The position numbers and the translations under genes are program-made. Under the pieces are notes generated by a model. The model had not been told where the DNA came from. It saw only the letters and a list, made by a program, of their open reading frames with translations, and did no database searches. Positions 20,007 to 32,285 of a DNA stretch of 64,000 nucleotides are shown piece by piece. Positions within the stretch are counted from its first letter, which is position 1; each line of letters begins with the position of its first letter. Location: assembly GCF_988242995.1 (NCBI RefSeq), contig NZ_OZ547043.1, one strand, 5' to 3'.

Positions 20007-20369
20007 GGGGCTGATTCTGGATTCGACGGGATTTGCGAAACCCAAGGTGCATGCCGAGGGGCGGTTGGCCTCGTAAAAAGCCGCAAAAAATAGTCGCAAA
20101 CGACGAAAACTACGCTTTAGCAGCTTAATAACCTGCTTAGAGCCCTCTCTCCCTAGCCTCCGCTCTTAGGACGGGGATCAAGAGAGGTCAAACCCAAAAG
20201 AGATCGCGTGGAAGCCCTGCCTGGGGTTGAAGCGTTAAAACTTAATCAGGCTAGTTTGTTAGTGGCGTGTCCGTCCGCAGCTGGCAAGCGAATGTAAAGA
20301 CTGACTAAGCATGTAGTACCGAGGATGTAGGAATTTCGGACGCGGGTTCAACTCCCGCCAGCTCCACCA
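20007..20369 (+). ncRNA. ssrA: tmRNA (transfer-messenger RNA)
   Basis: Begins ggggctgattctggattcgacggg, contains tag-peptide reading frame (…gcaaacgacgaaaactacgctttagcagcttaa), ends …gggttcaactcccgccagctccacca. Confidence 0.97.
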
Positions 20370-20402
20370 CTTGCTCTTCCGGATACGTCCGGAGAAATCC
20401 TG

Positions 20403-20437
20403 AAAGCCCGCATGGCGCAAGCCCTGTGGGCTTTTTT
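20403..20437 (+). terminator. Probable ssrA terminator
   Basis: aaagccc…gggcttt inverted repeat followed by T-run just 3' of ssrA. Confidence 0.5.
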
Positions 20438-20480
20438 GTGTCTACCGTTGTCCGAGGATATCCAGCTGAGTCCAGTGATT

Positions 20481-20534
20481 ATTGGTATACGTTTAGGTAT
20501 ACGGTAAGATGTATACCTAAATGCGTATACCAAT
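20481..20534. repeat. Imperfect 54-bp palindrome of GGTATACGTTTAGGTATAC motifs upstream of int (candidate Int arm-type / operator sites)
   Basis: attggtatacgtttaggtatac … gtatacctaaatgcgtataccaat; same motif recurs at 32027-32049 near attR. Confidence 0.55.
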
Positions 20535-20553
20535 TCATGAAGGAACGGCCAAA

Positions 20554-21753
20554 GTGGCAAGAACGACACGTCCCCTGACCAACACTGAAGTTCTGCGCGC
20601 TAAAGCGTTAGAAAAGGATCTAACGTTGCATGATGGCGATGGCCTTTTTCTGCTCGTTAAAACGAACGGTAAGAAATTATGGCGTTTCCGCTACCAAAAG
20701 CCAGTAACAAAACAGCGGACCATGATTAGTTTAGGAACCTTCCCTGCACTATCCTTGGCTGAAATCAGAAATGTGCGAGCTAAGTATCTTTCCTTGTTAG
20801 CCAAGGGGATCGATCCACAAACACACAATGAACAAGTCACACAACAACAACAAATTGCAGTAGAAAGTATTTTTTCAAACGTTGCTAAAAATTGGTTTGC
20901 CATTAAACGCAATAGCGTTACACCTGATTATGCAAAGGATATATGGCGATCCTTAGAGAAGGACATTTTCCCTGCTATCGGAGAGATTCCTGTTCAGGAA
21001 ATAAAAGCACGTATATTAATTGAAGCCCTAGAACCAATTAAGGCCCGCGGTGCACTCGAGACTGTTCGTCGTTTGGTGCAACGTATTAACGAAATTATGA
21101 TCTACGCTGTCAATACCGGATTAATTGAGGCTAATCCTGCGTCAGGTATTGGCATGGCTTTTGATAAACCCAAAAAGCAAAATTTGCCAACGCTGCGGCC
21201 AGAAGAATTACCTAAACTGATGCATTCTCTAGTAATGTCAAACCTGTCTATTCCTACTCGTTGTCTGATCGAATGGCAACTACTGACACTCGTTCGCCCT
21301 TCAGAAGCCTCTGGCGCCCGCTGGGATGAGATCGATTTAGAATCCAAACTTTGGAGAATTCCTGCTGAAAGGATGAAAGCAAAGCGCGAACATATAGTTC
21401 CTTTATCATCTCAAGCTTTAATTATTCTTGAAGTAATGAAACCCATAAGTGCTCATCGTGAACATATATTTCCTAGCAGGAATAACCCTCAAGAACCGAT
21501 GAATAGCCAAACAGCAAATGCAGCATTAAAACGCATAGGGTACGGAGGAAAGTTAGTTGCACATGGACTCCGTTCTATTGCCAGCACTGCATTAAATGAA
21601 GCCGAATTTAATTCTGACATTATTGAATCAGCTCTTGCACATGTTGATAAAAATGAGGTGAGAAGAGCATATAACCGCTCCACTTATCTTGATAAACGTA
21701 AAGAGATGATGGCTTGGTGGGGAAATTTTATATATAAAAATAATTCATTATAA
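20554..21753 (+). CDS. int: Tyrosine recombinase, P4-type integrase
   Basis: Start chosen at GTG after aggaa RBS giving 399 aa (…ARTTRPLTNTEVLRAKA…), typical of P4-family integrases; ORF track starts at 20521; C-terminal catalytic region (HGLRS…, …Y). Confidence 0.88.
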   Translation: MARTTRPLTNTEVLRAKALEKDLTLHDGDGLFLLVKTNGKKLWRFRYQKPVTKQRTMISLGTFPALSLAEIRNVRAKYLSLLAKGIDPQTHNEQVTQQQQIAVESIFSNVAKNWFAIKRNSVTPDYAKDIWRSLEKDIFPAIGEIPVQEIKARILIEALEPIKARGALETVRRLVQRINEIMIYAVNTGLIEANPASGIGMAFDKPKKQNLPTLRPEELPKLMHSLVMSNLSIPTRCLIEWQLLTLVRPSEASGARWDEIDLESKLWRIPAERMKAKREHIVPLSSQALIILEVMKPISAHREHIFPSRNNPQEPMNSQTANAALKRIGYGGKLVAHGLRSIASTALNEAEFNSDIIESALAHVDKNEVRRAYNRSTYLDKRKEMMAWWGNFIYKNNSL

Positions 21754-21764
21754 AAGGTATTACA

Positions 21765-22799
21765 ATGAATATTGATTCTATAAAACTTCATTTACAAAAT
21801 TTTTTCACAAATAATCCAACTGTTCTTATCGGTTCTGGCCTCTCTCTCGGTGAGGGGATTCCAGGTATGAAAACATTGGGAGAACATCTTAATACAACTA
21901 TCCCCAAATTAGTAAGCGGGGATCTTATAAGAGAATGGGGTATCATAAGTTCCAAACTAAATAATGGTATGGGACTTGAAGATGCCATGGCATTTCTTAA
22001 AGATGAAAGTGAACTTATCCCATTAATTATTCAGCACACCGCAGATCTTATTTTAAAGCATGAAAATACTGTAATATGCTCTGTAATCAATGGAGAAAAA
22101 AATCTAGCATTTACATCTTTATTGAATCACTTAACTTTTAATCAAAATGAATTGATAATTATAACTCCAAACTATGATAGACTAATTGAAATAGCATGTG
22201 AAATTGCTGGTCTAGAAATTTCAACAGGATTTATCAATAGTTATCATTGTATAAATAATCCTGAAGTTGAGTTAGATAAATTCAAAATCACCCACTCTAT
22301 CAAAACCACACGAGGTAAATCTACAGTTCAAATTAGAACTAAAAAACACGTTAAAATATTTAAACCTCATGGTAGTCTTGATTGGTTCAAGGCTGACGAT
22401 AAAATTATCAGGACCAGCTTTCAAAATAAACATAAAAGATTAATTATTACACCAGGTACAAGTAAATTCAGAGCTGGATATCAGCAGCCTTTTGATTGGC
22501 ATAGAGAAAAAGCAAACCATTATATCAAAAGAGCAAAATCACTATTAATTATTGGCTATGGGTTTAATGATGAGCAGTTAGAAGTACATTTGAAATCAAA
22601 AATACGTGAAAAAATACCTGTTTTATTAATGACATATGAATTGACATCAAACGCTCAAAAAATATGTGATGATAATCCTTCTATAACATATGTTATTGCA
22701 GAAGGAAACAATTCCATCGTTTGTATCGATGGCATTAAATATAAAATCGAAAAGAATATTTGGTCTTTAAATGAGTTTGTTAAAGAGGTACTTAAATAA
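21765..22799 (+). CDS. SIR2-like (NAD-binding/NADase family) protein, putative defence effector
   Basis: 344 aa; Rossmann-like VLIGSGLS, TPNYD and KPHGSL motifs as in SIR2/DUF4020 defence proteins; AT-rich; 11 bp after int stop. Confidence 0.75.
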   Translation: MNIDSIKLHLQNFFTNNPTVLIGSGLSLGEGIPGMKTLGEHLNTTIPKLVSGDLIREWGIISSKLNNGMGLEDAMAFLKDESELIPLIIQHTADLILKHENTVICSVINGEKNLAFTSLLNHLTFNQNELIIITPNYDRLIEIACEIAGLEISTGFINSYHCINNPEVELDKFKITHSIKTTRGKSTVQIRTKKHVKIFKPHGSLDWFKADDKIIRTSFQNKHKRLIITPGTSKFRAGYQQPFDWHREKANHYIKRAKSLLIIGYGFNDEQLEVHLKSKIREKIPVLLMTYELTSNAQKICDDNPSITYVIAEGNNSIVCIDGIKYKIEKNIWSLNEFVKEVLK

Positions 22800-24583
22800 T
22801 GGAATATTACGTCATTAACACTGATGAAACATGCTTTATCGGACGAATCGCAAATGTTGATACCGATCGTGCTATTATCATTTCAGAGTCTCCAGAGATC
22901 ATACAAGAACTAACCGTTTTTGACTTGGTTGCTATTGAAGGCAATACCCCCACAGAGTTTCTTGTTGGTATCATTGAAAAAGTAAAACGCTCTATTGGAG
23001 AAATACAAACTATTGATACTGAAGAAAATATTGAAGATGACAGTGAAAAAGATTTCGATAATATCTTCCAAACTTATTCTATCGATCATGATATTCTTCA
23101 AGTAGCTCTTATCGGCACTTTCTGGGAGGTTTACGGGGATAGAAGGAAAATTTTTAAAAGAGGAGCACAATATTTTCCAAAAGTTGAAAAACAAGCATTT
23201 CTTATAAAAAAAGACAGTCTTGAGAAATTAATGTCGGCAGTCGACAATGATACTCCTGATGAGCTAAAACTCATACTAGGCAACTATGGAAATACCAATT
23301 CACGAGCAGTTGCAAATGGGGATAAATTATTTCAGAGACATGCTGCCCTATTGGGGAGTACTGGTTCAGGTAAAAGTTGGACAGTTGCGTCATTACTAGA
23401 ACAAGCCTCAAAATTAAAATACAACAATATTGTACTTTATGATCTTCATGGTGAATACAAAACTTTATCTGATACACATAATAAATCGAACCGCCCGAGC
23501 ATAGCCGATTATTTTAAAATTGCAAGCCCAGGAAATATCGACGATGTAAATAGTATTTATGTACCTCATTGGTTATTAAACAAAGAAGAAATGCTATCAC
23601 TGTTGTTAGATAGAAGCGATAGCAATGCACCTAATCAGGCAGCAAGATTTAGCTACCACGTGAGAGAGCTAAAAAAAGAATACATCACACACAACAGATT
23701 AATACACTTAGAAGATTGTTTGACTGTTGATGCTCCAATACCCTACTCTATCGAGGATCTTATTAGCAGACTGCACGATGATGATCAAGGTATGAAAAAA
23801 GGTACTAATAATAAAGAAATAAAAGGTGATTGGAATGGAAAACTAACAAGATTCATAAGCAGGTTAAGAACAAAAGTAGACGACAAGAGGAACTGTTTTC
23901 TATTCTCAAATAAACCAGAACACAACCAATATGATTGGTTGGAGAAATACGCTTGTAAAATTTTAAAATCAGATAGCACAGATCATGGCATTAAAATAAT
24001 TGATTTTTCTGAAGTTCCTTCAGATATTATGCCTATTGTTATTGGTGTATTGACCAGATTTTTATACAACGTCCAATTTTGGAGATGTGAGACCGAACGA
24101 ACCCCTATAGCATTCGTTTGTGACGAAGCTCATATTTATTTACCCGCTAAGGATACCACTGAGGCTGAAACAAAAATATCCTTATCAATATTCGAGAAAA
24201 TTGCTAAAGAAGGCAGAAAGTACGGAGTATCTTTATTAGTCGTCAGCCAAAGACCTTCTGATGTTAGCAGAACAATACTAAGTCAATGTAATAACATAAT
24301 TTCTCTCAGACTAAGTAATTATAGAGATCAACAGGTAGTTAGTCGGTTAATGCCTGATTCATTGAGTTCATTAACATCCATACTACCAATTCTTGATACT
24401 GGGGAAGCAATAGTTCTTGGCGACTCTGTTCTATTACCAGCTAGAATAAAATTGAATCCACCAACACTCAAGCCCGATAGCGCAACCAGAGCTTTTTGGA
24501 ATGAGTGGGGGGCAATTGAAGCAAAAGAAATCTCTATAGCAAATGCTGTTGAATCACTCAGGAGACAATCTCGTAATCGCTAA
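22799..24583 (+). CDS. HerA-like P-loop ATPase (FtsK/HerA superfamily), partner of the SIR2 protein
   Basis: 594 aa; Walker A GSTGSGKS, Walker B FVCDEAH; start overlaps SIR2 stop (TAATG). Confidence 0.75.
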   Translation: MEYYVINTDETCFIGRIANVDTDRAIIISESPEIIQELTVFDLVAIEGNTPTEFLVGIIEKVKRSIGEIQTIDTEENIEDDSEKDFDNIFQTYSIDHDILQVALIGTFWEVYGDRRKIFKRGAQYFPKVEKQAFLIKKDSLEKLMSAVDNDTPDELKLILGNYGNTNSRAVANGDKLFQRHAALLGSTGSGKSWTVASLLEQASKLKYNNIVLYDLHGEYKTLSDTHNKSNRPSIADYFKIASPGNIDDVNSIYVPHWLLNKEEMLSLLLDRSDSNAPNQAARFSYHVRELKKEYITHNRLIHLEDCLTVDAPIPYSIEDLISRLHDDDQGMKKGTNNKEIKGDWNGKLTRFISRLRTKVDDKRNCFLFSNKPEHNQYDWLEKYACKILKSDSTDHGIKIIDFSEVPSDIMPIVIGVLTRFLYNVQFWRCETERTPIAFVCDEAHIYLPAKDTTEAETKISLSIFEKIAKEGRKYGVSLLVVSQRPSDVSRTILSQCNNIISLRLSNYRDQQVVSRLMPDSLSSLTSILPILDTGEAIVLGDSVLLPARIKLNPPTLKPDSATRAFWNEWGAIEAKEISIANAVESLRRQSRNR

Positions 24584-24608
24584 TAAAAATATTATCTAGC
24601 AACGCGCA

Positions 24609-24627
24609 GTGCTTTCCCCGCCTCGCC
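24609..24627 (-). other. P2/P4-type cos site (19-nt cohesive end sequence)
   Basis: gtgctttccccgcctcgcc is the exact reverse complement of the recalled P2/P4 cohesive end GGCGAGGCGGGGAAAGCAC. Confidence 0.75.
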
Positions 24628-24727
24628 CGCCCGCTTTGCGGGGCGGTTTCAGTGCAGTTGCACTGACACGCTCAGGCCGCGCCGGGAATGGCGCGGTCTG
24701 CAGAAAATGAGGCAGGAAAACGCATGC

Positions 24728-24762
24728 AAAGCCATGCACCTTATCGATGCATGGCTTTTTTC
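24728..24762 (+). terminator. Rho-independent terminator between cargo operon and psu
   Basis: gccatgca-ccttatcga-tgcatggc hairpin followed by TTTTTT. Confidence 0.6.
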
Positions 24763-24791
24763 AGTAAAAACGGGCGGATTTTCGGGGAATT

Positions 24792-25364
24792 TTACACAGA
24801 CTGATGTGATGCCAGTTGCGCACTTTTACGCGAAAAAATCATGTTCTGCGCAGGAGTGAATTTTTCACGGCTGTCATCCACCGAAGCCGCGTCAGGCCTG
24901 AATCCGATGGTCGTTAAAATGTCGCTATCCTGTGCGGAATAATTAATTTTTTCACCCTTCGCAAGCCAGGACTGGAGGGCTTCACGCAGGGCATCTGTGG
25001 CACGCTGTATGGCACAGTTTCGGGCAATGGCCGTCAGCTCACTGTAGCCCATCAGCTCCGGTGCCAGTGCCGCCGCCAGTGCTGTGCCGTGCTGCTGCAT
25101 AAAATCATTCAGCCGGTCGCGGATGCTGATGTGCTGAACGGCTTCATGCGAACGAATATAACGACCGGCGGCCTGATTCACCTGCCATTTTCTGACTTCG
25201 ATAATATTGCGTAATTCGTCCAGGCGACTGACGTTTCTGCCTTCTCCTGACAGAAGCCGCAGGTATTCCTGTTCGGCCGCTGCCAGCTCATTTTTGCGTT
25301 GCAGCCATGCTGCTTTGTTATTCTGACAGGTGTCAAAGGCCTGCTGTAAGGCTGTGCTTTCCAT
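24792..25364 (-). CDS. psu: Polarity suppression protein Psu (P4-like)
   Basis: 190 aa ORF MESTALQQAFDTCQNNKAAWLQRK…, recalled as P4 Psu; length matches. Confidence 0.85.
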   Translation of the reverse strand: MESTALQQAFDTCQNNKAAWLQRKNELAAAEQEYLRLLSGEGRNVSRLDELRNIIEVRKWQVNQAAGRYIRSHEAVQHISIRDRLNDFMQQHGTALAAALAPELMGYSELTAIARNCAIQRATDALREALQSWLAKGEKINYSAQDSDILTTIGFRPDAASVDDSREKFTPAQNMIFSRKSAQLASHQSV

Positions 25365-25437
25365 CGTTATCTCTTTCTCATCATGCTGAAGAATAAAAAT
25401 ACGGTGTGCGGCGACGGCCGGTGTTAACCGGCAGCCC

Positions 25438-25938
25438 TCATTCCAGACGCAGCGAATATGATTGTGTTTTTAACCGTACTGGCGGCAGTTCCTGTTTTTC
25501 ATGCAGGCGTTCTGCCAGTTCGTCCGGCGTGACCGGGCGGACAATGAAACGGTTGATGGTCTGAAGCGTTTTAAACACCAGACCACAGCCCGGATCCGTG
25601 CACACATAAAAACGCTCGGTGACTTCCTGAGACAGACGCCGCGATGTTCTTGACAGTGCAAGGCCTTTACATCTCCGACAACAATATCCGGTAACAAGCA
25701 TTCTTTTCGGCCGTTTCATACTGCCGGAGGCTGACGTCAGTGAATCGCGGTATCTCTGTTTGCCTGAAATGTATTCCATTCCTGAATCTTTACAGTCAGA
25801 GAAAAAGCTTTCACTCGCTTCAAATGTCGCAGAGCAATAAATATTCCGGCACTGTGCAATCATTATCTTGGTGCCATCGTCCATGAAATGTGCGCGACGG
25901 GTGTGAGCAACATGTCCACACGACGGGCAGTAAATCAT
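25438..25938 (-). CDS. delta: Late-gene transcriptional activator Delta (Ogr/Delta zinc-finger family)
   Basis: 166 aa; CPSCGH…C…C zinc-finger at N-terminus and a second Cys cluster; same size as P4 Delta. Confidence 0.85.
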   Translation of the reverse strand: MIYCPSCGHVAHTRRAHFMDDGTKIMIAQCRNIYCSATFEASESFFSDCKDSGMEYISGKQRYRDSLTSASGSMKRPKRMLVTGYCCRRCKGLALSRTSRRLSQEVTERFYVCTDPGCGLVFKTLQTINRFIVRPVTPDELAERLHEKQELPPVRLKTQSYSLRLE

Positions 25939-26669
25939 GACAGCAGCCCTCTGGCCTTAAGCTCTGCTCCCTGCTGGTCTATTTTGTCCTGCCACACCTT
26001 GCGCTGTGCCGGTGTGCCTGCCACCTCATAATCCATGTGCGGGAGTGTTGCCGCTGACAGTCCGGCCAGCCGGAGAACCGGCTCGCCGGTGAGGCTGATT
26101 TGCATCTGTTTTATTTTCTGTTCCAGCGATGATTTCACCTGCTGCATGACAGCCTTTTCCGGCGCGACGTAGCCCTGATGGCCGGTGGTGTTGGCGAGCG
26201 GATTTTCCTGTACCAGGATGCTCAGATGCATTGCCCGGACAAGCGCCTCACAGGTTTCATTCAGGGCGTGTTCCAGCTCATGCTCTGCATACAGACTCAG
26301 CAGGTGATGATGTGCCTTCCGGTAGGCGGTGGCCGTGCTGTCACACGCCCCTTTCAGGCGTTCACATTCAAAATTCAGCACCACGGCCAGATTGTCATAT
26401 TCCTGTACCAGCTCCCGGCGTGCCACGCGCTCAATGTGGCGCTGTTTCAGCTCATCGCTCAGGACACCACCGGCTGCACGAAAGGCCGTGCGCCAGTCGT
26501 CAGCGTCGTTTCCGTCGGCCTGCGTCAGCGCATTTTTTTCCTGCTCTGCCCGTTCAATGGCCGTGATGGTCTCATCCATCAGGCGGGCGTTCTCAAGATG
26601 AGCGGCTCTGGCCTTTTCCAGTTGTGCCAGCGCGGGTTGCAGATATTCAGGGATGGTGTTGTCAGACAT
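25935..26669 (-). CDS. sid: Capsid size determination protein Sid (P4-like)
   Basis: Start chosen at MSDNTIPEYLQPALAQLEKAR (244 aa); ORF track extends 22 codons upstream; overlaps delta start. Confidence 0.8.
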   Translation of the reverse strand: MSDNTIPEYLQPALAQLEKARAAHLENARLMDETITAIERAEQEKNALTQADGNDADDWRTAFRAAGGVLSDELKQRHIERVARRELVQEYDNLAVVLNFECERLKGACDSTATAYRKAHHHLLSLYAEHELEHALNETCEALVRAMHLSILVQENPLANTTGHQGYVAPEKAVMQQVKSSLEQKIKQMQISLTGEPVLRLAGLSAATLPHMDYEVAGTPAQRKVWQDKIDQQGAELKARGLLS

Positions 26670-26703
26670 TTTCCGGCTCCTCGTCACTTCAGGTTGAGAA
26701 AAT

Positions 26704-26759
26704 TGTGACGTACACCGGACAACAACACGACGCATTGCAGATGTGCCAGCCCTGACACA
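26704..26759 (-). promoter_or_regulatory. Candidate Psid late promoter with two TGT-N12-ACA Delta/Ogr-type dyads
   Basis: tgt-gacgtacaccgg-aca (26704-26721) and tgt-gccagccctgac-aca (26742-26759), centres 38 bp apart, immediately upstream of sid. Confidence 0.6.
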
Positions 26760-26838
26760 GGAGACTCATCCTCAGACCGGCAAGCCAGGAAAAGGTCGCA
26801 GGAAAAACCGGCTTACTGTTTGTTTTTTTATATTTTAC

Positions 26839-26942
26839 TGTTCACCTCTGTTCACCTTAAGAAAAAAGATAAGTAATACAGTAAGTTAAAGGATGAACAA
26901 TCGCAGTAATGACTGTTCACCGTCTGTTCACCACTGTTCACC
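26839..26942. repeat. Cluster of five direct TGTTCACC octamers (P4 ori-like alpha-binding iterons)
   Basis: tgttcacc at 26839, 26849, 26914, 26925, 26935; same octamer recurs in repeats downstream of alpha. Confidence 0.7.
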
Positions 26943-27101
26943 CGCTCATGGACTTTTTGTGCTGTTTACTACTGTTTGTTTTTATTAATTCGCCGGGAAT
27001 GAATAAGAAGAAACGATTTGTATTTCACTATAAAAATTACGAATTGCTTTAAGTGGCTTTAAATGACTTTAAGTGGAGATGAACAAAAAATACACAAGCA
27101 T

Positions 27102-27119
27102 TGTAAGGCTGCCGGAACA
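27102..27119 (+). promoter_or_regulatory. Candidate Delta-dependent leftward-operon promoter element (TGT-N12-ACA)
   Basis: tgt-aaggctgccgga-aca upstream of the AlpA/Vis-like gene; an imperfect second dyad follows. Confidence 0.35.
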
Positions 27120-27221
27120 AATCCCCCCTGTTGCGTCTGCCGAAAATATTCACAAAATAAAGCGCTACCCGAAGCCGGACGGACTTATCCGGTGCTGTAT
27201 GGACATTAACGAGGTAGCCCG

Positions 27222-27488
27222 ATGCAATCTGTTTTTTCTTCCCCGTCTCCCGCCCCAGTGACGCCACTGATGCCGCTGCCGGACATCACGCAGGAGCGTT
27301 TTTTACGTCTGCCGGAAGTGATGCACCTGTGCGGCCTGTCACGCTCGACCATCTATGAACTTATCCGTAAGGGGGAATTTCCGCCGCAGGTGAGTCTTGG
27401 CGGTAAAAATGTGGCCTGGCTGCACTCTGAAGTCACCGCATGGATGGCCGGGCGCATTGCCGGACGCAAACGGGGGTACGACGCATGA
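27222..27488 (+). CDS. AlpA/Vis-family small DNA-binding protein (excisionase/regulator)
   Basis: …[52 protein letters not shown] is AlpA-like HTH; a later start at Met-17 (27270) is possible. Confidence 0.75.
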
Positions 27489-27886
27489 TGATGCCCGCTC
27501 TGCAAAAAGTCCCTTTTTCTGGCTTGCCTTTTTCCGGCATTTGCGGATATAGTTTTTCCGCTGCCGCAAAATCGGCAGCCGGGCGTGGAAACCCGAGTAT
27601 GTTATCGGCGACATATGACGCGCCATGCGTCTTTTTTTGTGTCGCAATCAACGCCACAGAGCGCCAGATTATGGTGTGGTGTGTGGTCAGTCGAGCAAAT
27701 GGCACTCCGTGCATTCTGCCCGCGTCCGCTCATTATACCGCAGAGTCAATGGTAGCTCAGGCGGGGCAGCCTCCGCGCTGGCCGGTTTCCGATAACGCCG
27801 GTATTTCCACCCCCGTCTGGGCTATCGCCATCGAGCGTGGAAACTCCGGCGATAGCGTCATTTACGCTGTTATCGGAGGTTGCCTT

Positions 27887-28084
27887 ATGGCTACGACCCT
27901 TATCCCCTCACACCCTGAATTTGTCTTTGTGTTTGCGGCTGTCCGTCGCGCAGACCGTCATCCCCGTATCTGTATGCTTCGCACCGTCGCCGGTGATGAA
28001 CGCAGCGCCCGCCGTTCCCTTGTCCGTGACTATGTGCTCTCCCTTGCTGCCCGTCTGCCGGTGGTGGAGGTGTCCCGTGCGTAA
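27887..28084 (+). CDS. Small hypothetical protein (65 aa) in satellite left operon
   Basis: ATG 7 nt after GGAGG; lies within long frame 27440-28084; overlaps next gene start. Confidence 0.35.
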
Positions 28085-28364
28085 TAAAAAAGCCCCTCAG
28101 ACCGTCTCAGCACGTCATGACGCCCGTGAACACCTCAGCATTGAGGCTTACCATAAGCTCAACCGCGCCAGCGCCGTATCCCAGTTTGTTGGGGGTGATT
28201 TGATTCACCGTGAACTCTCCGGCCTGCATCAGCTCTACATTCCGCATATTTTCAGCTACCTGAATGAAGATATTGATTTTGTGCTGAATGAGCTGAAAGC
28301 CAAAGGCCTGTGCCGCGATTTTCTCGCCCAGCAGAAAGACCGGGGAGACAGGACGCATGTTTGA
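28077..28364 (+). CDS. Hypothetical 95-aa protein, candidate P4 epsilon-like (anti-repressor) by position and size
   Basis: GTG start after ggagg; 95 aa, same size as P4 epsilon and directly upstream of a 151-aa ORF; sequence identity not verified. Confidence 0.4.
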
Positions 28365-28812
28365 TTTTCCCCAGCCCGGTGAGATTTACCGTTCTGCCGG
28401 TTTTCCCGATGTGGCCGTGGTCGGCATTCTGGAAGACGGTATTCCGTGGGAAATGCCGTACCGCTGCCCGGACATTGTCTGGAACCCGTACCGCCGTAAA
28501 TTCAGTATCCTTGTGCGTATCCTCGCTGACGGGCGCACCACAGACATCCCGCTGGGGCGTTTTCTGCGGGAATTTACCTGTGACCGTCCTGACCTGTTTA
28601 AACGCAGCCCCGTAAACCGGCATGCGGTACTGAAAGAAATGGCCGGAGACCCGGAATTACAGAAATGGCGGGAGAAATATCTGGATATTTACCCGCAGGA
28701 CCCTGTTCCGGTCAGCCGGGCGGCACCGGTGGCGCGGGAATGGCGGGAAATTCCCCGCACGGAGCCTGACCCGGAAACCACCCCGGATAACAGTTACCGC
28801 AATTATCTGTAA
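28357..28812 (+). CDS. Hypothetical protein, P4 orf151-like
   Basis: 151 aa ORF, start overlaps preceding stop (ATGTTTGA); position and length match P4 orf151. Confidence 0.55.
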   Translation: MFDFPQPGEIYRSAGFPDVAVVGILEDGIPWEMPYRCPDIVWNPYRRKFSILVRILADGRTTDIPLGRFLREFTCDRPDLFKRSPVNRHAVLKEMAGDPELQKWREKYLDIYPQDPVPVSRAAPVAREWREIPRTEPDPETTPDNSYRNYL

Positions 28813-28947
28813 TTAAAAAACGACACCCGAAAAATTAAATGTGCGTATTCGCGCAGGGATACGCACGTCTTCAGGAGACGCAGATATGCCTTATCAGTTA
28901 ATGCAACCGGCACGGAATGCAGTCATCTGTCACAGGGAGGAAAACAA

Positions 28948-29268
28948 ATGAAAACACCCTTACCGCCCGTCTTACGCGCTGCCCTTTACCGTCGCGCTGT
29001 CGCCTGTGCCTGGCTGACCGTGTGCGAACGTCAGCACCGCTACCCGCATCTCACCCTTGAGTCACTGGAGGCGGCCATCGCCGCTGAGCTGGAAGGCTTT
29101 TATCTGCGCCAGCACGGTGAGGAAAAAGGGCGTCAGATAGCCTGTGCCCTGCTGGAAGATTTAATGGAATCCGGCCCCCTGAAGGCCGCGCCGTCGCTGT
29201 CCTTTCTCGGGCTGGTTGTGATGGATGAACTCTGTGCCCGTCACATAAAAGCGCCGGTACTGCACTGA
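28948..29268 (+). CDS. Hypothetical 106-aa protein, candidate Cnr-like copy-number regulator
   Basis: 106 aa ORF immediately upstream of alpha, as for P4 cnr; assignment by position and size only. Confidence 0.4.
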
Positions 29269-29282
29269 AGGAGAACAACACC

Positions 29283-31616
29283 ATGAAAATGAACGTAACC
29301 GCCACCGTCAGCCATGCGCTCGGCCACTGGCCGCGTATTCTCCCGGCGCTGGGGATTCAGGTGCTGAAGAACCATCATCAGCCCTGTCCGGTCTGTGGCG
29401 GGAGTGACCGCTTCCGTTTTGATGACAGGGAGGGGCGCGGCACCTGGTACTGCAATCAGTGTGGTGCCGGTGACGGCCTGAAACTGGTTGAAAAGGTGTT
29501 TGGTGTCTCCCCGTCCGACGCGGCCGCAAAGGTGGCTGCCGTGACCGGCAGTCTGCCCCCGGCTGACCCGGCAGTGACGGCTGCCGCCGTTGCTGAAACA
29601 GACGCTGCCCGGAAGAACGCCGCCGCACTGGTACAAACCCTGATGGCAAAAACCCGTCCCGGAACCGGTAACGCCTACCTGACCCGCAAGGGCTTTCCCG
29701 GCCGGGAATGCCGGATGCTGACCGGCACACACAGAGCCGGTGGCGTGAGCTGGCGCGCCGGTGACCTTGTGGTGCCACTGTATGACGACAGCGGCGAACT
29801 GGTTAACCTTCAGTTAATCAGTGCTGACGGCCGTAAGCGCACCCTGAAAGGCGGACAGGTCAGGGGCACCTGTCACACCCTTGAAGGACAGAATCAGGCC
29901 GGAAAACGTCTGTGGATAGCGGAGGGATACGCGACCGCACTTACCGTGCATCACCTGACCGGTGAAACGGTGATGGTGGCGCTTTCTTCCGTGAATCTCC
30001 TTTCTCTGGCCAGCCTTGCCCGGCAGAAGCATCCGGCCTGTCAGATTGTCCTTGCTGCTGACCGTGACCTCAGCGGTGACGGCCAGAAAAAAGCCGCCGC
30101 AGCCGCAGATGCGTGTGAAGGTGTTGTTGCCCTGCCGCCGGTCTTCGGTGACTGGAATGATGCCTTCACGCAGTACGGCGGGGAAGCCACCCGTAAGGCC
30201 ATTTATGATGCCATCCGGCCACCGGCTGAAAGCCCGTTCGACACCATGAGCGAAGCGGAGTTTTCCGCCATGAGTACCAGCGAAAAGGCCATGCGTATCT
30301 ATGAGCATTACGGCGAGGCGCTCGCGGTCGATGCCAACGGCCAGCTTCTGTCCCGCTATGAAAATGGTGTCTGGAAGGTGCTGCCGCCACAGGACTTTGC
30401 CCGGGATGTGGCCGGGCTGTTTCAGCGTCTGCGAGCGCCGTTCTCCTCCGGGAAGGTGGCCTCCGTGGTGGACACCCTGAAGCTGATTATTCCGCAGCAG
30501 GAAGCCCCCTCCCGCCGCCTGATTGGCTTTCGTAACGGCGTGCTCGACACGCAGAACGGCACGTTCCACCCGCACAGTCCGTCACACTGGATGCGCACCC
30601 TGTGCGATGTGGATTTCACCCCGCCGGTGGACGGTGAAACGCTGGAAACCCACGCCCCCGCCTTCTGGCGCTGGCTTGACCGTGCCGCCGGTGGCCGTGC
30701 GGAAAAACGCGACGTGATTCTGGCTGCACTGTTTATGGTGCTGGCAAACCGCTACGACTGGCAGCTCTTTCTGGAGGTGACCGGTCCCGGCGGCAGCGGC
30801 AAAAGTATCATGGCCGAAATCGCCACCCTGCTGGCCGGGGAGGATAACGCCACGTCGGCCACCATCGAGACGCTGGAATCCCCGCGTGAACGTGCCGCGT
30901 TAACTGGCTTCTCACTGATACGCCTGCCGGATCAGGAAAAATGGAGCGGCGACGGTGCCGGACTCAAGGCCATCACCGGCGGCGATGCGGTGTCCGTTGA
31001 CCCGAAATACCGGGATGCGTACTCCACGCACATCCCGGCGGTGATTCTGGCCGTGAACAATAACCCGATGCGCTTCACCGACCGCAGCGGCGGCGTGTCA
31101 CGCCGGCGGGTGATTATTCACTTCCCGGAACAGATAGCCCCGCAGGAGCGCGACCCGCAGCTTAAGGACAAAATCACCCGCGAGCTGGCGGTCATCGTGC
31201 GTCACCTGATGCAGAAGTTCAGCGACCCGATGCTCGCCCGGTCACTGCTTCAGTCCCAGCAGAACTCAGACGAGGCACTGAACATCAAACGGGATGCCGA
31301 CCCGACGTTTGATTTTATCGGCTATCTGGAAACCCTGCCGCAGACCAGCGGCATGTATATGGGGAACGCCAGTATCATCCCGCGTAATTACCGTAAATAC
31401 CTCTATCACGCCTATCTGGCCTACATGGAGGCAAACGGCTACCGGAATGTACTCAGTCTGAAAATGTTCGGACTGGGGCTGCCGGTGATGCTGAAAGAAT
31501 ACGGGCTGAATTACGAGAAGCGCCATACCAAACAGGGGATACAGACCAACCTGACGCTGAAAGAAGAAAGCTACGGCGACTGGCTGCCAAAATGTGACGA
31601 CCCTGCAACAGCCTGA
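29283..31616 (+). CDS. alpha: Alpha primase-helicase replication protein (P4-like)
   Basis: 777 aa, same length as P4 alpha; zinc-binding primase motif CPVCGGSDRFRF…YCNQCG; Walker A GPGGSGKS. Confidence 0.9.
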   Translation: MKMNVTATVSHALGHWPRILPALGIQVLKNHHQPCPVCGGSDRFRFDDREGRGTWYCNQCGAGDGLKLVEKVFGVSPSDAAAKVAAVTGSLPPADPAVTAAAVAETDAARKNAAALVQTLMAKTRPGTGNAYLTRKGFPGRECRMLTGTHRAGGVSWRAGDLVVPLYDDSGELVNLQLISADGRKRTLKGGQVRGTCHTLEGQNQAGKRLWIAEGYATALTVHHLTGETVMVALSSVNLLSLASLARQKHPACQIVLAADRDLSGDGQKKAAAAADACEGVVALPPVFGDWNDAFTQYGGEATRKAIYDAIRPPAESPFDTMSEAEFSAMSTSEKAMRIYEHYGEALAVDANGQLLSRYENGVWKVLPPQDFARDVAGLFQRLRAPFSSGKVASVVDTLKLIIPQQEAPSRRLIGFRNGVLDTQNGTFHPHSPSHWMRTLCDVDFTPPVDGETLETHAPAFWRWLDRAAGGRAEKRDVILAALFMVLANRYDWQLFLEVTGPGGSGKSIMAEIATLLAGEDNATSATIETLESPRERAALTGFSLIRLPDQEKWSGDGAGLKAITGGDAVSVDPKYRDAYSTHIPAVILAVNNNPMRFTDRSGGVSRRRVIIHFPEQIAPQERDPQLKDKITRELAVIVRHLMQKFSDPMLARSLLQSQQNSDEALNIKRDADPTFDFIGYLETLPQTSGMYMGNASIIPRNYRKYLYHAYLAYMEANGYRNVLSLKMFGLGLPVMLKEYGLNYEKRHTKQGIQTNLTLKEESYGDWLPKCDDPATA

Positions 31617-31623
31617 CCCACCT

Positions 31624-31648
31624 GACCGGCATCTGCCGGTCTTTTTTT
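31624..31648 (+). terminator. Rho-independent terminator after alpha
   Basis: gaccggca/tgccggtc stem followed by TTTTTTT. Confidence 0.6.
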
Positions 31649-31666
31649 ATCCCTGAATCCCCCGAA

Positions 31667-31962
31667 GGTGAACAATCCAGTGTTCACCCTTCACCGTATA
31701 TTCACCCGTTATCACACTGAAATTAAAAGAGAAAAACGAAAGGTGAACAGTGTGAACAATCAAATCAAAAAAAACTTTTTTTCTTCCTGTGTGATTTTCA
31801 GCACGGGAAATTAATCCCCTGCACAAGTCACACCGGCAGAATGCCGGAGGTGAAGAATCGAATGTTCACCCTTCACCCATTATTCACCACCTATCACTCT
31901 GAAATAAAAGGAGAAAACAGAAAGGTGAACAGTGTGAACAGTTCTTTCGAAAAAAAATTTTT
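31667..31962. repeat. crr-like region: two ~115-bp direct repeats carrying TGTTCACC / GGTGAACA iterons
   Basis: Repeat units at ~31667-31790 and ~31849-31962 (ggtgaa.aatc..atgttcacccttcacc…aaaggtgaacagtgtgaaca…aaaaaa.ttttttt), period ~182 bp. Confidence 0.75.
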
Positions 31963-32026
31963 TTCCTGTACGATATAGCATCAATCCAAGTAAAAATGCG
32001 CTTTCATTTCACATTAACTTACAGCC

Positions 32027-32049
32027 ATTGGTATACGATTAGGTATACG
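32027..32049. repeat. Distal copy of GGTATACG(A/T)TTAGGTATACG motif near attR
   Basis: attggtatacgattaggtatacg, direct repeat of 20481-20503. Confidence 0.55.
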
Positions 32050-32106
32050 CACAAAAAATGAATTAAACAAAATCATTAAAAATCAAAGCAATACAATATT
32101 TATTCA

Positions 32107-32124
32107 AACTCCGCCAGCTCCACC
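32107..32124 (+). repeat. attR: imperfect direct repeat of ssrA 3' end
   Basis: actccgccagctccacca versus ssrA end actcccgccagctccacca (20351-20369). Confidence 0.75.
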
Positions 32125-32285
32125 AATCATGATTGAACGGTGCAAGGACAACACCAACAAAAACAGGAAGTTATAAGTCTCAGCAAGACACCGACCAGAC
32201 GGTGAGGAGACAAAAAAGGATACGCAAAGGAGCCGCGGCTCCTGGTGATATGAAAGCCCACAGATGTGGGCTTTTTCGTTGATGG

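Follow-up and report, generated by a model that had tools for sequence, protein, structure and literature searches.

Satellite phage P4 replicates independently of DnaA, DnaB and DnaG, and deletion analysis of its origin reportedly showed that all six ori iterons matter. Two other groups of replicons are built along comparable lines. Iteron plasmid origins share with P4 the phased direct repeats, an initiator of their own, an adjacent AT-rich segment and a distant, modulating set of iterons. Satellites of the SaPI/PICI type likewise encode a self-loading helicase/primase initiator and carry iterons flanking an AT-rich region, although their protein family and iteron sequence are unrelated to those of the P4 type. 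In addition, the SaPI ori is a single site adjoining rep, in contrast to a bipartite arrangement of ori and crr 4.8 kb apart. In a published survey, P4-like elements were never found on plasmids; the plasmid state, in which Cnr has a role, arises in about 1% of P4 infections (PMC8628076).

Here we describe two iteron clusters in a window of 64,000 nucleotides (contig NZ_OZ547043.1, assembly GCF_988242995.1). These clusters are very probably the two parts, ori (ori1) and crr, of a bipartite, initiator-dependent origin in an intact P4-type satellite prophage. Clusters of this kind are already well known, and the finding is correct but ordinary. Its value as a discovery is small: sequencing, annotation and dissection of P4 ori and crr go back to the late 1980s, and the present copy is 98–99% identical.

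A P4-type satellite prophage in ssrA

The element is a relative of satellite phage P4, integrated in an E. coli chromosome. It is seated in ssrA, the tmRNA gene (20007–20369), and measures 11,756 bp (11.76 kb) between its att cores, which fits a P4-size capsid (∼11.6 kb). Its ends and cos region are located as follows.

20355–20369, + strand: attL core CCGCCAGCTCCACCA, a 15-nt repeat at the 3′ end of ssrA
24603–24674, strand not given: cos region; P4 homology starts at 24628, the equivalent of the P4 genome end
32111–32125, + strand: attR core CCGCCAGCTCCACCA, second copy of the 15-nt direct repeat

Between 24628 and 31963 (7.3 kb), the window aligns to P4 with 98% identity in a single, gap-free alignment, and sid and epsilon fall within this alignment and its annotation. 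Pfam searches with the ORFs of the element returned integrase, Psu, Ogr_Delta, Phage_AlpA and the domains of alpha. The element carries the core gene set of P4-like satellites (Moura de Sousa & Rocha), in agreement with how RefSeq annotates the closest genome. With att repeats, int, cos, psu, delta, sid and immunity RNAs all in place, the element appears complete.

There are also departures from P4. SIR2+HerA defence genes take the place of gop/beta/cII as cargo, and the integrase has been swapped, the Int of the element being 36% identical to that of P4. The att site lies in ssrA rather than corresponding to P4's attP, which matches leuX. The attR region is overlapped by a database match to a tmRNA pseudogene/attP of another phage. 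The cos region also matches P2-type phage genomes, and in several of these the match lies near the genome end (e.g. 32387–32449 of 32541 in OU784750).

Two iteron clusters equivalent to P4 ori and crr

A first-pass annotation of the window had placed five direct octamers between sid and an AlpA-like gene, and both the coordinates and the gene context were confirmed. Direct copies of TGTTCACC start at 26839, 26849, 26914, 26925 and 26935 on the + strand, with sid on the left and the AlpA-family gene (27222–27488) on the right. A sixth iteron, the only inverted one, occupies 26892–26899 on the − strand and reads TGTTCATC, a single mismatch. As in P4 ori1, the six type I iterons, five exact and one with a mismatch, have an AT-rich neighbor of ∼35 bp. 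Spacings between successive iterons are 10, 43, 22, 11 and 10 bp, or approximately 1, 4, 2, 1 and 1 helical turns.

26443–27166, − strand: span equivalent to rep_origin (X51522 9086–9809), transferred via the gap-free 98% alignment
26839–26942, + strand: ori1 core with six type I iterons, a base-for-base match to six P4 'ori type 1 repeat' features
26857–26891, no strand: AT-rich segment of 35 bp between iterons 2 and 3, defined by composition (80% A+T, versus 51% for the window overall)
27047–27076, − strand: three tandem 10-bp 'ori type 2' repeats, CTTTAAGTGG / CTTTAAATGA / CTTTAAGTGG, placed by alignment to the P4 annotation

The AT-rich segment is presumed to be the DNA-unwinding element, a role suggested by its composition and position.

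The second cluster lies downstream of alpha, which ends 46 bp before it, and its exact TGTTCACC copies span 31667–31931. The distance between the two clusters, start to start, is 4828 bp, in agreement with the original estimate of about 4.8 kb.

31624–31648, + strand: Rho-independent alpha terminator, from a terminator scan; corresponds to the P4 'talpha' feature
31662–31781, + strand: crr unit 1, 120 bp (P4 'crr 120bp direct repeat'), with exact iterons at 31667 (−), 31681 (+) and 31742 (−) and degenerate ones at 31699 (+, TATTCACC) and 31751 (−, TGTTCACA)
31844–31963, + strand: crr unit 2, 120 bp by P4 annotation, with exact iterons at 31863 (+) and 31924 (−) and degenerate ones at 31849 (−, TCTTCACC), 31881 (+, TATTCACC) and 31933 (−, TGTTCACA); P4 homology stops at the end of this unit

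The two units lie ∼60 bp apart and each contains five iterons, in both orientations, the same number as annotated for P4; five of the ten are degenerate. This region had been described as two ∼115-bp direct repeats just after alpha. The repeats, their octamers and their position are real, while their length is 120–122 bp: positions 31662–31783 and 31844–31965 are 82% identical, with 98 of 120 matches over the units as defined in P4. The inverted ori iteron, the five degenerate crr iterons and the three type 2 repeats had been overlooked in the first-pass annotation.

That annotation had also likened the two clusters to P4 ori and crr, and the comparison bears this out. In P4 (X51522 / NC_001609, X05623), the homologous bases, 98% identical, are annotated as rep_origin and crr; the labels read "origin of DNA replication / ori type 1 repeats" and "crr (cis required region for replication)", and both X51522 and X05623 give crr two 120-bp direct repeats. 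Over a 321-bp ori region, identity reaches 99%. None of the five direct ori iterons or the ten crr iterons differs from its P4 counterpart; the type 2 repeats are likewise identical, and the alpha terminator and the ori–crr spacing are the same. Differences from P4 at the two sites include a G→A in the inverted ori iteron, one substitution in the AT-rich segment, several more immediately to the right of iteron 6, and divergence of the ∼60-bp spacer between the crr units.

The alpha initiator and Cnr

Two genes between the clusters encode the predicted trans-acting factors.

28948–29268, + strand: cnr (ORF106, DUF5375), copy-number regulator acting on alpha; 106/106 residues identical to P4 ORF106
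29283–31616, + strand: alpha, a 777-aa primase-helicase-origin-binding initiator; 771/777 residues (99%) identical to P4 alpha

In alpha, Pfam identified Zn ribbon, Toprim, D5_N, DUF5906 and Pox_D5 domains, and the protein combines a primase, an SF3 helicase and a C-terminal origin-binding domain. Residues 671–770 are 100% identical to PDB 1KA8, the solved origin-binding domain of P4. Cnr, encoded immediately upstream of alpha, matches DUF5375 with E = 3e-63. We also considered whether the DNA-binding domain of alpha is unusually conserved among homologs, in parallel with the conserved iteron, and rejected the idea: identities over three identity bands (0.79, 0.68 and 0.54) are close to those for the whole protein, and the most conserved part is the ATPase core.

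In its working mode, the element resembles iteron plasmids such as R6K, where pi mediates looping at the gamma ori, and P1, F and pSC101, with their iterons and handcuffing. However, its initiator is a primase–SF3 helicase fusion with a winged-helix C-terminal domain rather than a Rep_3/RepA-type protein, and no Rep_3/RepA initiator domain was found by Pfam in alpha or the other element ORFs submitted. The likeness to Rep-type iteron plasmids is one of mechanism only, and the element is not a member of that group.

Conservation across P4-like elements

The first-pass annotation had held that a lack of iterons in related satellites would count against an origin. We surveyed the surroundings of 80 alpha homologs (56–87% identity) from across the Enterobacterales and found the iterons to be widely conserved. 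An ori-type cluster, scored as at least 4 iteron matches per 130 bp, was present upstream of alpha in 53 of 69 loci, and the ++-+++ layout is kept down to 57% alpha identity. Using a profile built from the window's two units alone, we detected a near full-length crr-type unit, on the same strand and downstream of alpha, in 65 of 77 loci (about 85%). Relatives typically share the gene order and have a ++-+++ cluster about 1.6–2.6 kb upstream of alpha, with between one and three crr-type units on its downstream side. Distant relatives vary at the eighth iteron base, and their crr iterons have drifted, for example to T[GC]TACACC or TGGTCAC; crr units can lie 0.7–3.8 kb from alpha. The element in the window is at the P4-proximal end of this diversity. 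The survey is a modest addition to what is known of the family: the ori layout is conserved down to 57% alpha identity, while crr varies in copy number, distance and iteron sequence.

Two other readings of these data were discarded. Octamer counts, exact or with one mismatch, had suggested that many distant relatives are devoid of crr; inspection and the seed-only profile showed that most of these apparent absences are degenerate units, so that octamer counting underestimates crr. An nhmmer search iterated three times had given a minus-strand match to ori (E about 1e-16), as if ori were an inverted paralog of the crr unit, and this proved to be contamination of the profile by ori hits. The un-iterated crr seed matches ori weakly (E = 0.0065 in the window; E < 1e-3 in 7 of 80 loci), and MAFFT aligned little of ori and crr beyond the iterons.

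Proposed origin function and alternative explanations

Every cis site and trans factor of the P4 replicon is present in the element, intact and nearly identical to its P4 counterpart, in a layout conserved across the family. By analogy with P4, replication would proceed as follows. The origin-binding domain of the element's alpha, a winged helix at the C-terminus, would bind the type I iterons (TGTTCACC). The six iterons at ori, on one face of the helix, flank the 35-bp, 80% A+T segment, which would melt. As alpha is predicted to supply both the SF3 helicase and the primase, the host's own initiator, helicase loader and primase would be dispensable, and elongation would fall to a host polymerase. 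The crr, 4.8 kb away past the alpha terminator with its ten iterons in two 120-bp units, would be required in cis, most likely acting as an 'enhancer' of ori through alpha loading or looping. Cnr would hold alpha back and thereby set copy number. This scheme draws on GenBank feature tables and on the biology of P4. Experiments on P4, reportedly those of Flensburg and Calendar in 1987, Ziegelin and colleagues in 1993 and 1995, Tocchetti and colleagues in 1999, and Briani and colleagues in 2001, are the source for binding and melting, for the need for crr in cis, for independence from host factors and for the idea of looping.

Autonomous replication as a plasmid, which had been raised at the outset, is plausible for this element, judging from its near-identity to P4. 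Of three matches in PLSDB, two were chromosome-sized records, and no genuine natural P4-type plasmid was found in that database. It is more likely that the usual job of the replicon is replication after excision or infection rather than stable plasmid maintenance.

We considered whether the sites might instead be relics, that is, homologs of P4 ori and crr in which the origin is attenuated or dead, for instance through the substitution in the inverted iteron, so that the element persists by chromosomal inheritance only. The G→A in iteron 3 is indeed a minority allele: of 37 close relatives, 3 carry it, whereas the other 34 and P4 do not. That P4-like elements have never been seen as plasmids points the same way, as does the fact that many prophage-like elements are defective (PMC8628076). 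However, all other parts (alpha, cnr, the ten crr iterons, the AT-rich segment, att, cos and the immunity RNAs) are intact, with no frameshifts. Moreover, TGTTCATC occurs at the same position in two otherwise normal relatives (L019 and L033), and degenerate iterons are tolerated in P4's own crr. On balance, a relic origin seems improbable, although the G→A may affect origin firing.

A second possibility is that the iterons are mainly transcriptional operators. Alpha or another factor bound to them would control read-through beyond alpha as well as the promoters that diverge toward sid and the early/immunity genes. Their placement lends this some appeal, the ori cluster being intergenic between the divergent sid and AlpA-family genes and crr coming directly after the alpha terminator. 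However, the P4 record assigns exactly these bases to the replication origin and crr, a promoter scan of the ori and crr regions returned no sigma-70-like promoter in either, and iterons in helical phase around an AT-rich segment resemble an origin in their layout. We therefore consider a mainly regulatory role very improbable. A 'terminator-like' match reported within ori by the scan is merely the inverted iteron pair.

Finally, the idea that the clusters are functionless chance or low-complexity repetition, which could appeal to four further isolated TGTTCACC copies (at 34402, 34897, 36977 and 53518), has a negligible probability and is already refuted by statistics and conservation: the window contains 14 exact matches compared to 1.88 ± 1.28 in shuffled sequences (maximum 5; 0/100 reach 14), a Poisson estimate puts the chance of five or more copies within any 104 bp of the 64 kb at about 2e-10, position and layout are conserved in 50–70 independent loci from many genera, and the stray copies are unclustered, three of them lying inside a repetitive autotransporter ORF.

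Variation and annotation of the cis sites

Within the reading of the clusters as a functional ori and crr, the minority TGTTCATC allele, together with the drift of crr in sequence, number and position in distant relatives as against the fixed iterons and layout of ori, raises the idea that the two sites are under different constraints. On this idea, crr would be a portable, low-specificity landing pad or enhancer for alpha, and the inverted iteron would be a site at which origin firing, or the choice between the two replicons reported for P4, is naturally tuned. We regard this as speculative and rather unlikely; if true, it would refine P4 replication biology incrementally and would not amount to a new system.

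The practical value of the comparison lies in annotation. In the closest genome, RefSeq marks neither ori nor crr as a feature, and the cis-site signature, in which ++-+++ TGTTCAC iterons lie upstream and a -++-- unit downstream of alpha, goes unlabeled by automated annotation. Adding ori and crr marks 20355–32125 as a complete, probably replication-competent P4-type satellite with SIR2+HerA defence cargo.

Two iteron clusters form a P4-type replication origin

The octamer TGTTCACC occurs in 14 exact copies in the 64-kb window, compared to 1.88 ± 1.28 copies (maximum 5) in dinucleotide-preserving shuffles. Ten of these lie in the two clusters that the first-pass annotation had picked out, and by a Poisson estimate, at least five octamers would fall together in some 104-bp stretch of the window with a probability of ∼2e-10. 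The genes around the clusters are also as described there, with sid to the left and an AlpA-family gene to the right of the first cluster (ori), and the second cluster (crr) just after the gene for alpha, the P4-type primase-helicase and origin-binding initiator.

Features of the ori and crr regions (window coordinates)
26839, 26849, 26914, 26925 and 26935 (starts), same strand: five direct ori iterons, TGTTCACC
26892-26899, inverted: sixth ori iteron
27047-27076: three 10-bp 'type 2' repeats
27222-27488: AlpA-family gene
29283-31616: alpha gene (777 aa), ending 46 bp before the second cluster
31624-31648: alpha terminator, 14 bp before the start of crr unit 1
31667, 31681, 31742, 31863 and 31924 (starts), both strands: five exact crr copies of TGTTCACC

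A bipartite P4 ori/crr architecture had been proposed for these clusters, and the P4 records agree. Window positions 24628-31963 align to bacteriophage P4 (X51522 / NC_001609) with 98.0% identity in one gap-free piece. The P4 feature table labels the homologous bases as rep_origin, with six 'ori type 1 repeats' and three 'type 2 repeats', and as 'crr (cis required region for replication)', with two 'crr 120bp direct repeats' containing five type 1 repeats each. In the comparison with P4 that had been suggested as a check, base-level alignment of the ori region gave 99% identity over 321 bp with 5/5 direct iterons unchanged, and all of the crr iterons (10/10) were identical. The clusters are the P4 replication origin, ori/crr, a textbook feature that is already known.

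The first-pass annotation missed the inverted ori iteron, the type 2 repeats and five degenerate crr iterons. Spacings between the six ori iterons are 10, 43, 22, 11 and 10 bp, or about 1, 4, 2, 1 and 1 helical turns, so all six face the same side of the helix. The 35-bp segment between iterons 2 and 3 is 80% A+T, compared to 51% for the window overall. In crr, the direct repeat (31662-31783 versus 31844-31965) shows 82% identity, or 98/120 over the 120-bp units, and each unit has the iteron pattern - + + - -. The ∼60-bp spacer between the units has diverged from P4. With an iterated crr profile, ori looked like a crr unit copied in inverted orientation; this idea was rejected, the profile having been contaminated by ori hits. 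The seed-only crr profile sees ori at E = 0.0065, and a direct ori-crr alignment shares little beyond the iterons.

The sole iteron-level difference from P4 in ori falls in the inverted iteron: P4 has GGTGAACA and the window has GATGAACA, i.e. TGTTCATC in place of TGTTCACC (G->A). Among 37 close relatives, A is the minority allele (A in 3, G in 34), and the closest complete genome, CP099721, carries the P4 allele. TGTTCATC is also found at the same position in L019 and L033, two distant relatives that are normal in other respects, and degenerate iterons are tolerated in the crr of P4 itself. The substitution is probably neutral.

Conservation of ori and crr in related satellites

We scanned one genome per species for alpha homologues and obtained 80 loci (56-87% identity) from Citrobacter, Enterobacter, Klebsiella, Kluyvera, Edwardsiella, Pantoea, Erwinia, Serratia, Yersinia, Dickeya, Pectobacterium, Rahnella and other genera. 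With an ori cluster defined as four or more octamers per 130 bp, each with up to one mismatch, against a background of 0.1-0.4 per 130 bp, 53/69 loci with sufficient flank have such a cluster 1.6-2.6 kb upstream of alpha. Its layout, ++-+++ with the 7-mer core TGTTCAC, is nearly unchanged down to 57% alpha identity. Octamer counting detected a crr cluster in just 42/71 loci, and inspection revealed degenerate units in many of the negatives. With an nhmmer profile built from the window's two crr units only, 65/77 loci (38/39, 7/9 and 20/29 by identity band) show a near-full-length unit that follows alpha on the same strand, and 26 loci have at least two units. In 49 loci, no more than 300 bp separate the first unit from the alpha stop codon, and in the rest the distance is 0.7-3.8 kb. 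For close relatives in IMG/VR, the ori-crr distance is 4.77-5.04 kb in every contig long enough. Hence the iterons, whose absence from related satellites had been named as grounds against the P4 reading, are conserved there.

In five distant loci (L038, L049, L053, L065 and L071), ori lies ∼2.0 kb upstream of alpha and crr +40 to +210 after it. Here, ori retains iterons of the TGTTCAC type in the ++-+++ layout, whereas the crr iterons have drifted (T[GC]TACACC in L038; TGGTCAC in L053 and L065), so crr seems to evolve faster than ori. Other loci (L004, L007, L023, L024, L028, L059, L075 and L076, among others) contain one to three crr units ∼50 bp to 3.8 kb from the alpha stop codon, a variability implying that some satellites have gained inserted DNA between the two.

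In L066, a ++-+++ ori-type cluster is found at -151 from alpha rather than the usual ∼2 kb, suggesting that this element has lost the region with immunity, epsilon and cnr. Separately, Serratia-type loci (L051, L052, L054, L058 and L064) have in common ∼190 conserved nt ahead of the terminator, in the ∼200 nt that directly follow the alpha match, with the inverted repeat GATCAAT-N-ATTATTGATC followed by CTGCCGAACCCATTGGACGC. This stretch may extend the C terminus of alpha, or else represent a small gene or RNA.

Trans-acting factors and mode of replication

Alpha is identical to P4 alpha at 771/777 positions and contains Zn-ribbon and Toprim primase domains and D5-type helicase domains; residues 671-770 are 100% identical to the solved P4 alpha C-terminal domain (PDB 1KA8). 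The copy-number regulator Cnr (ORF106) matches its P4 counterpart at 106/106 positions. Both trans-acting parts are intact, and ori/crr most likely works as in P4. Given the near-identity to P4, the C-terminal domain of alpha would bind the type I iterons, and alpha would melt the AT-rich segment of ori before acting as its own helicase and primase. The crr, needed in cis, would provide extra alpha-binding sites that aid ori at a distance, and Cnr would restrain alpha activity, thereby setting copy number. The biochemical steps of P4 replication were reportedly described by Flensburg & Calendar (1987), Ziegelin et al. (1993, 1995), Tocchetti et al. (1999) and Briani et al. (2001). PMC8628076 gives a summary of what alpha and cnr do, and Ziegelin 1993 is cited by title in PMC9611036.

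Plasmid replication of the element, also raised in the first-pass annotation, is more weakly inferred than the origin assignment. A survey reports that P4-like elements are never on plasmids and cites a P4 plasmid establishment of ∼1% (PMC8628076). No real P4-type plasmid was found in PLSDB.

The element and its neighbourhood

The element is a P4-like prophage of 11,756 bp that has integrated at the 3' end of ssrA in E. coli; smpB-ssrA lies on one side of it in the chromosome and ypjA-gab on the other.

Features of the element and its flank (window coordinates)
20355-20369 and 32111-32125: att cores, CCGCCAGCTCCACCA (15 nt)
21765-24583: SIR2-domain protein (344 aa) and HerA-type ATPase (594 aa), int-psu hotspot
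27547-27599: c4-a1b1, Rfam gathering-level match
27560-27637: isrK, Rfam gathering-level match
27745-27832: C4 antisense RNA, Rfam gathering-level match
32286-36983, minus strand: AIDA/pertactin autotransporter (1565 aa), YpjA/EhaD-like
39941-40016, minus strand: tRNA-Met (CAT anticodon), ARAGORN

P4 similarity begins exactly at cos (24628) and ends with crr unit 2; outside it, the integrase and P4 Int share only 36% identity. With homology stopping precisely at these two points, the int/att/cargo block (20355-21753 and 31963-32125 sides) resembles a swapped module. The P4 immunity RNA region (27547-27832) is apparently intact. P4 carries gop, beta and cII in the int-psu hotspot, whereas this element has SIR2 and HerA instead, a known anti-phage pair in a known hotspot, already described as cargo there (PMC9122126).

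The autotransporter ORF directly follows attR and contains three lone copies of TGTTCACC (34402, 34897 and 36977), which are unclustered and look incidental. From its map position in the ypjA-gab interval, we take the tRNA at 39941-40016 to be ileY of E. coli K-12, a tRNA-Ile via lysidine.
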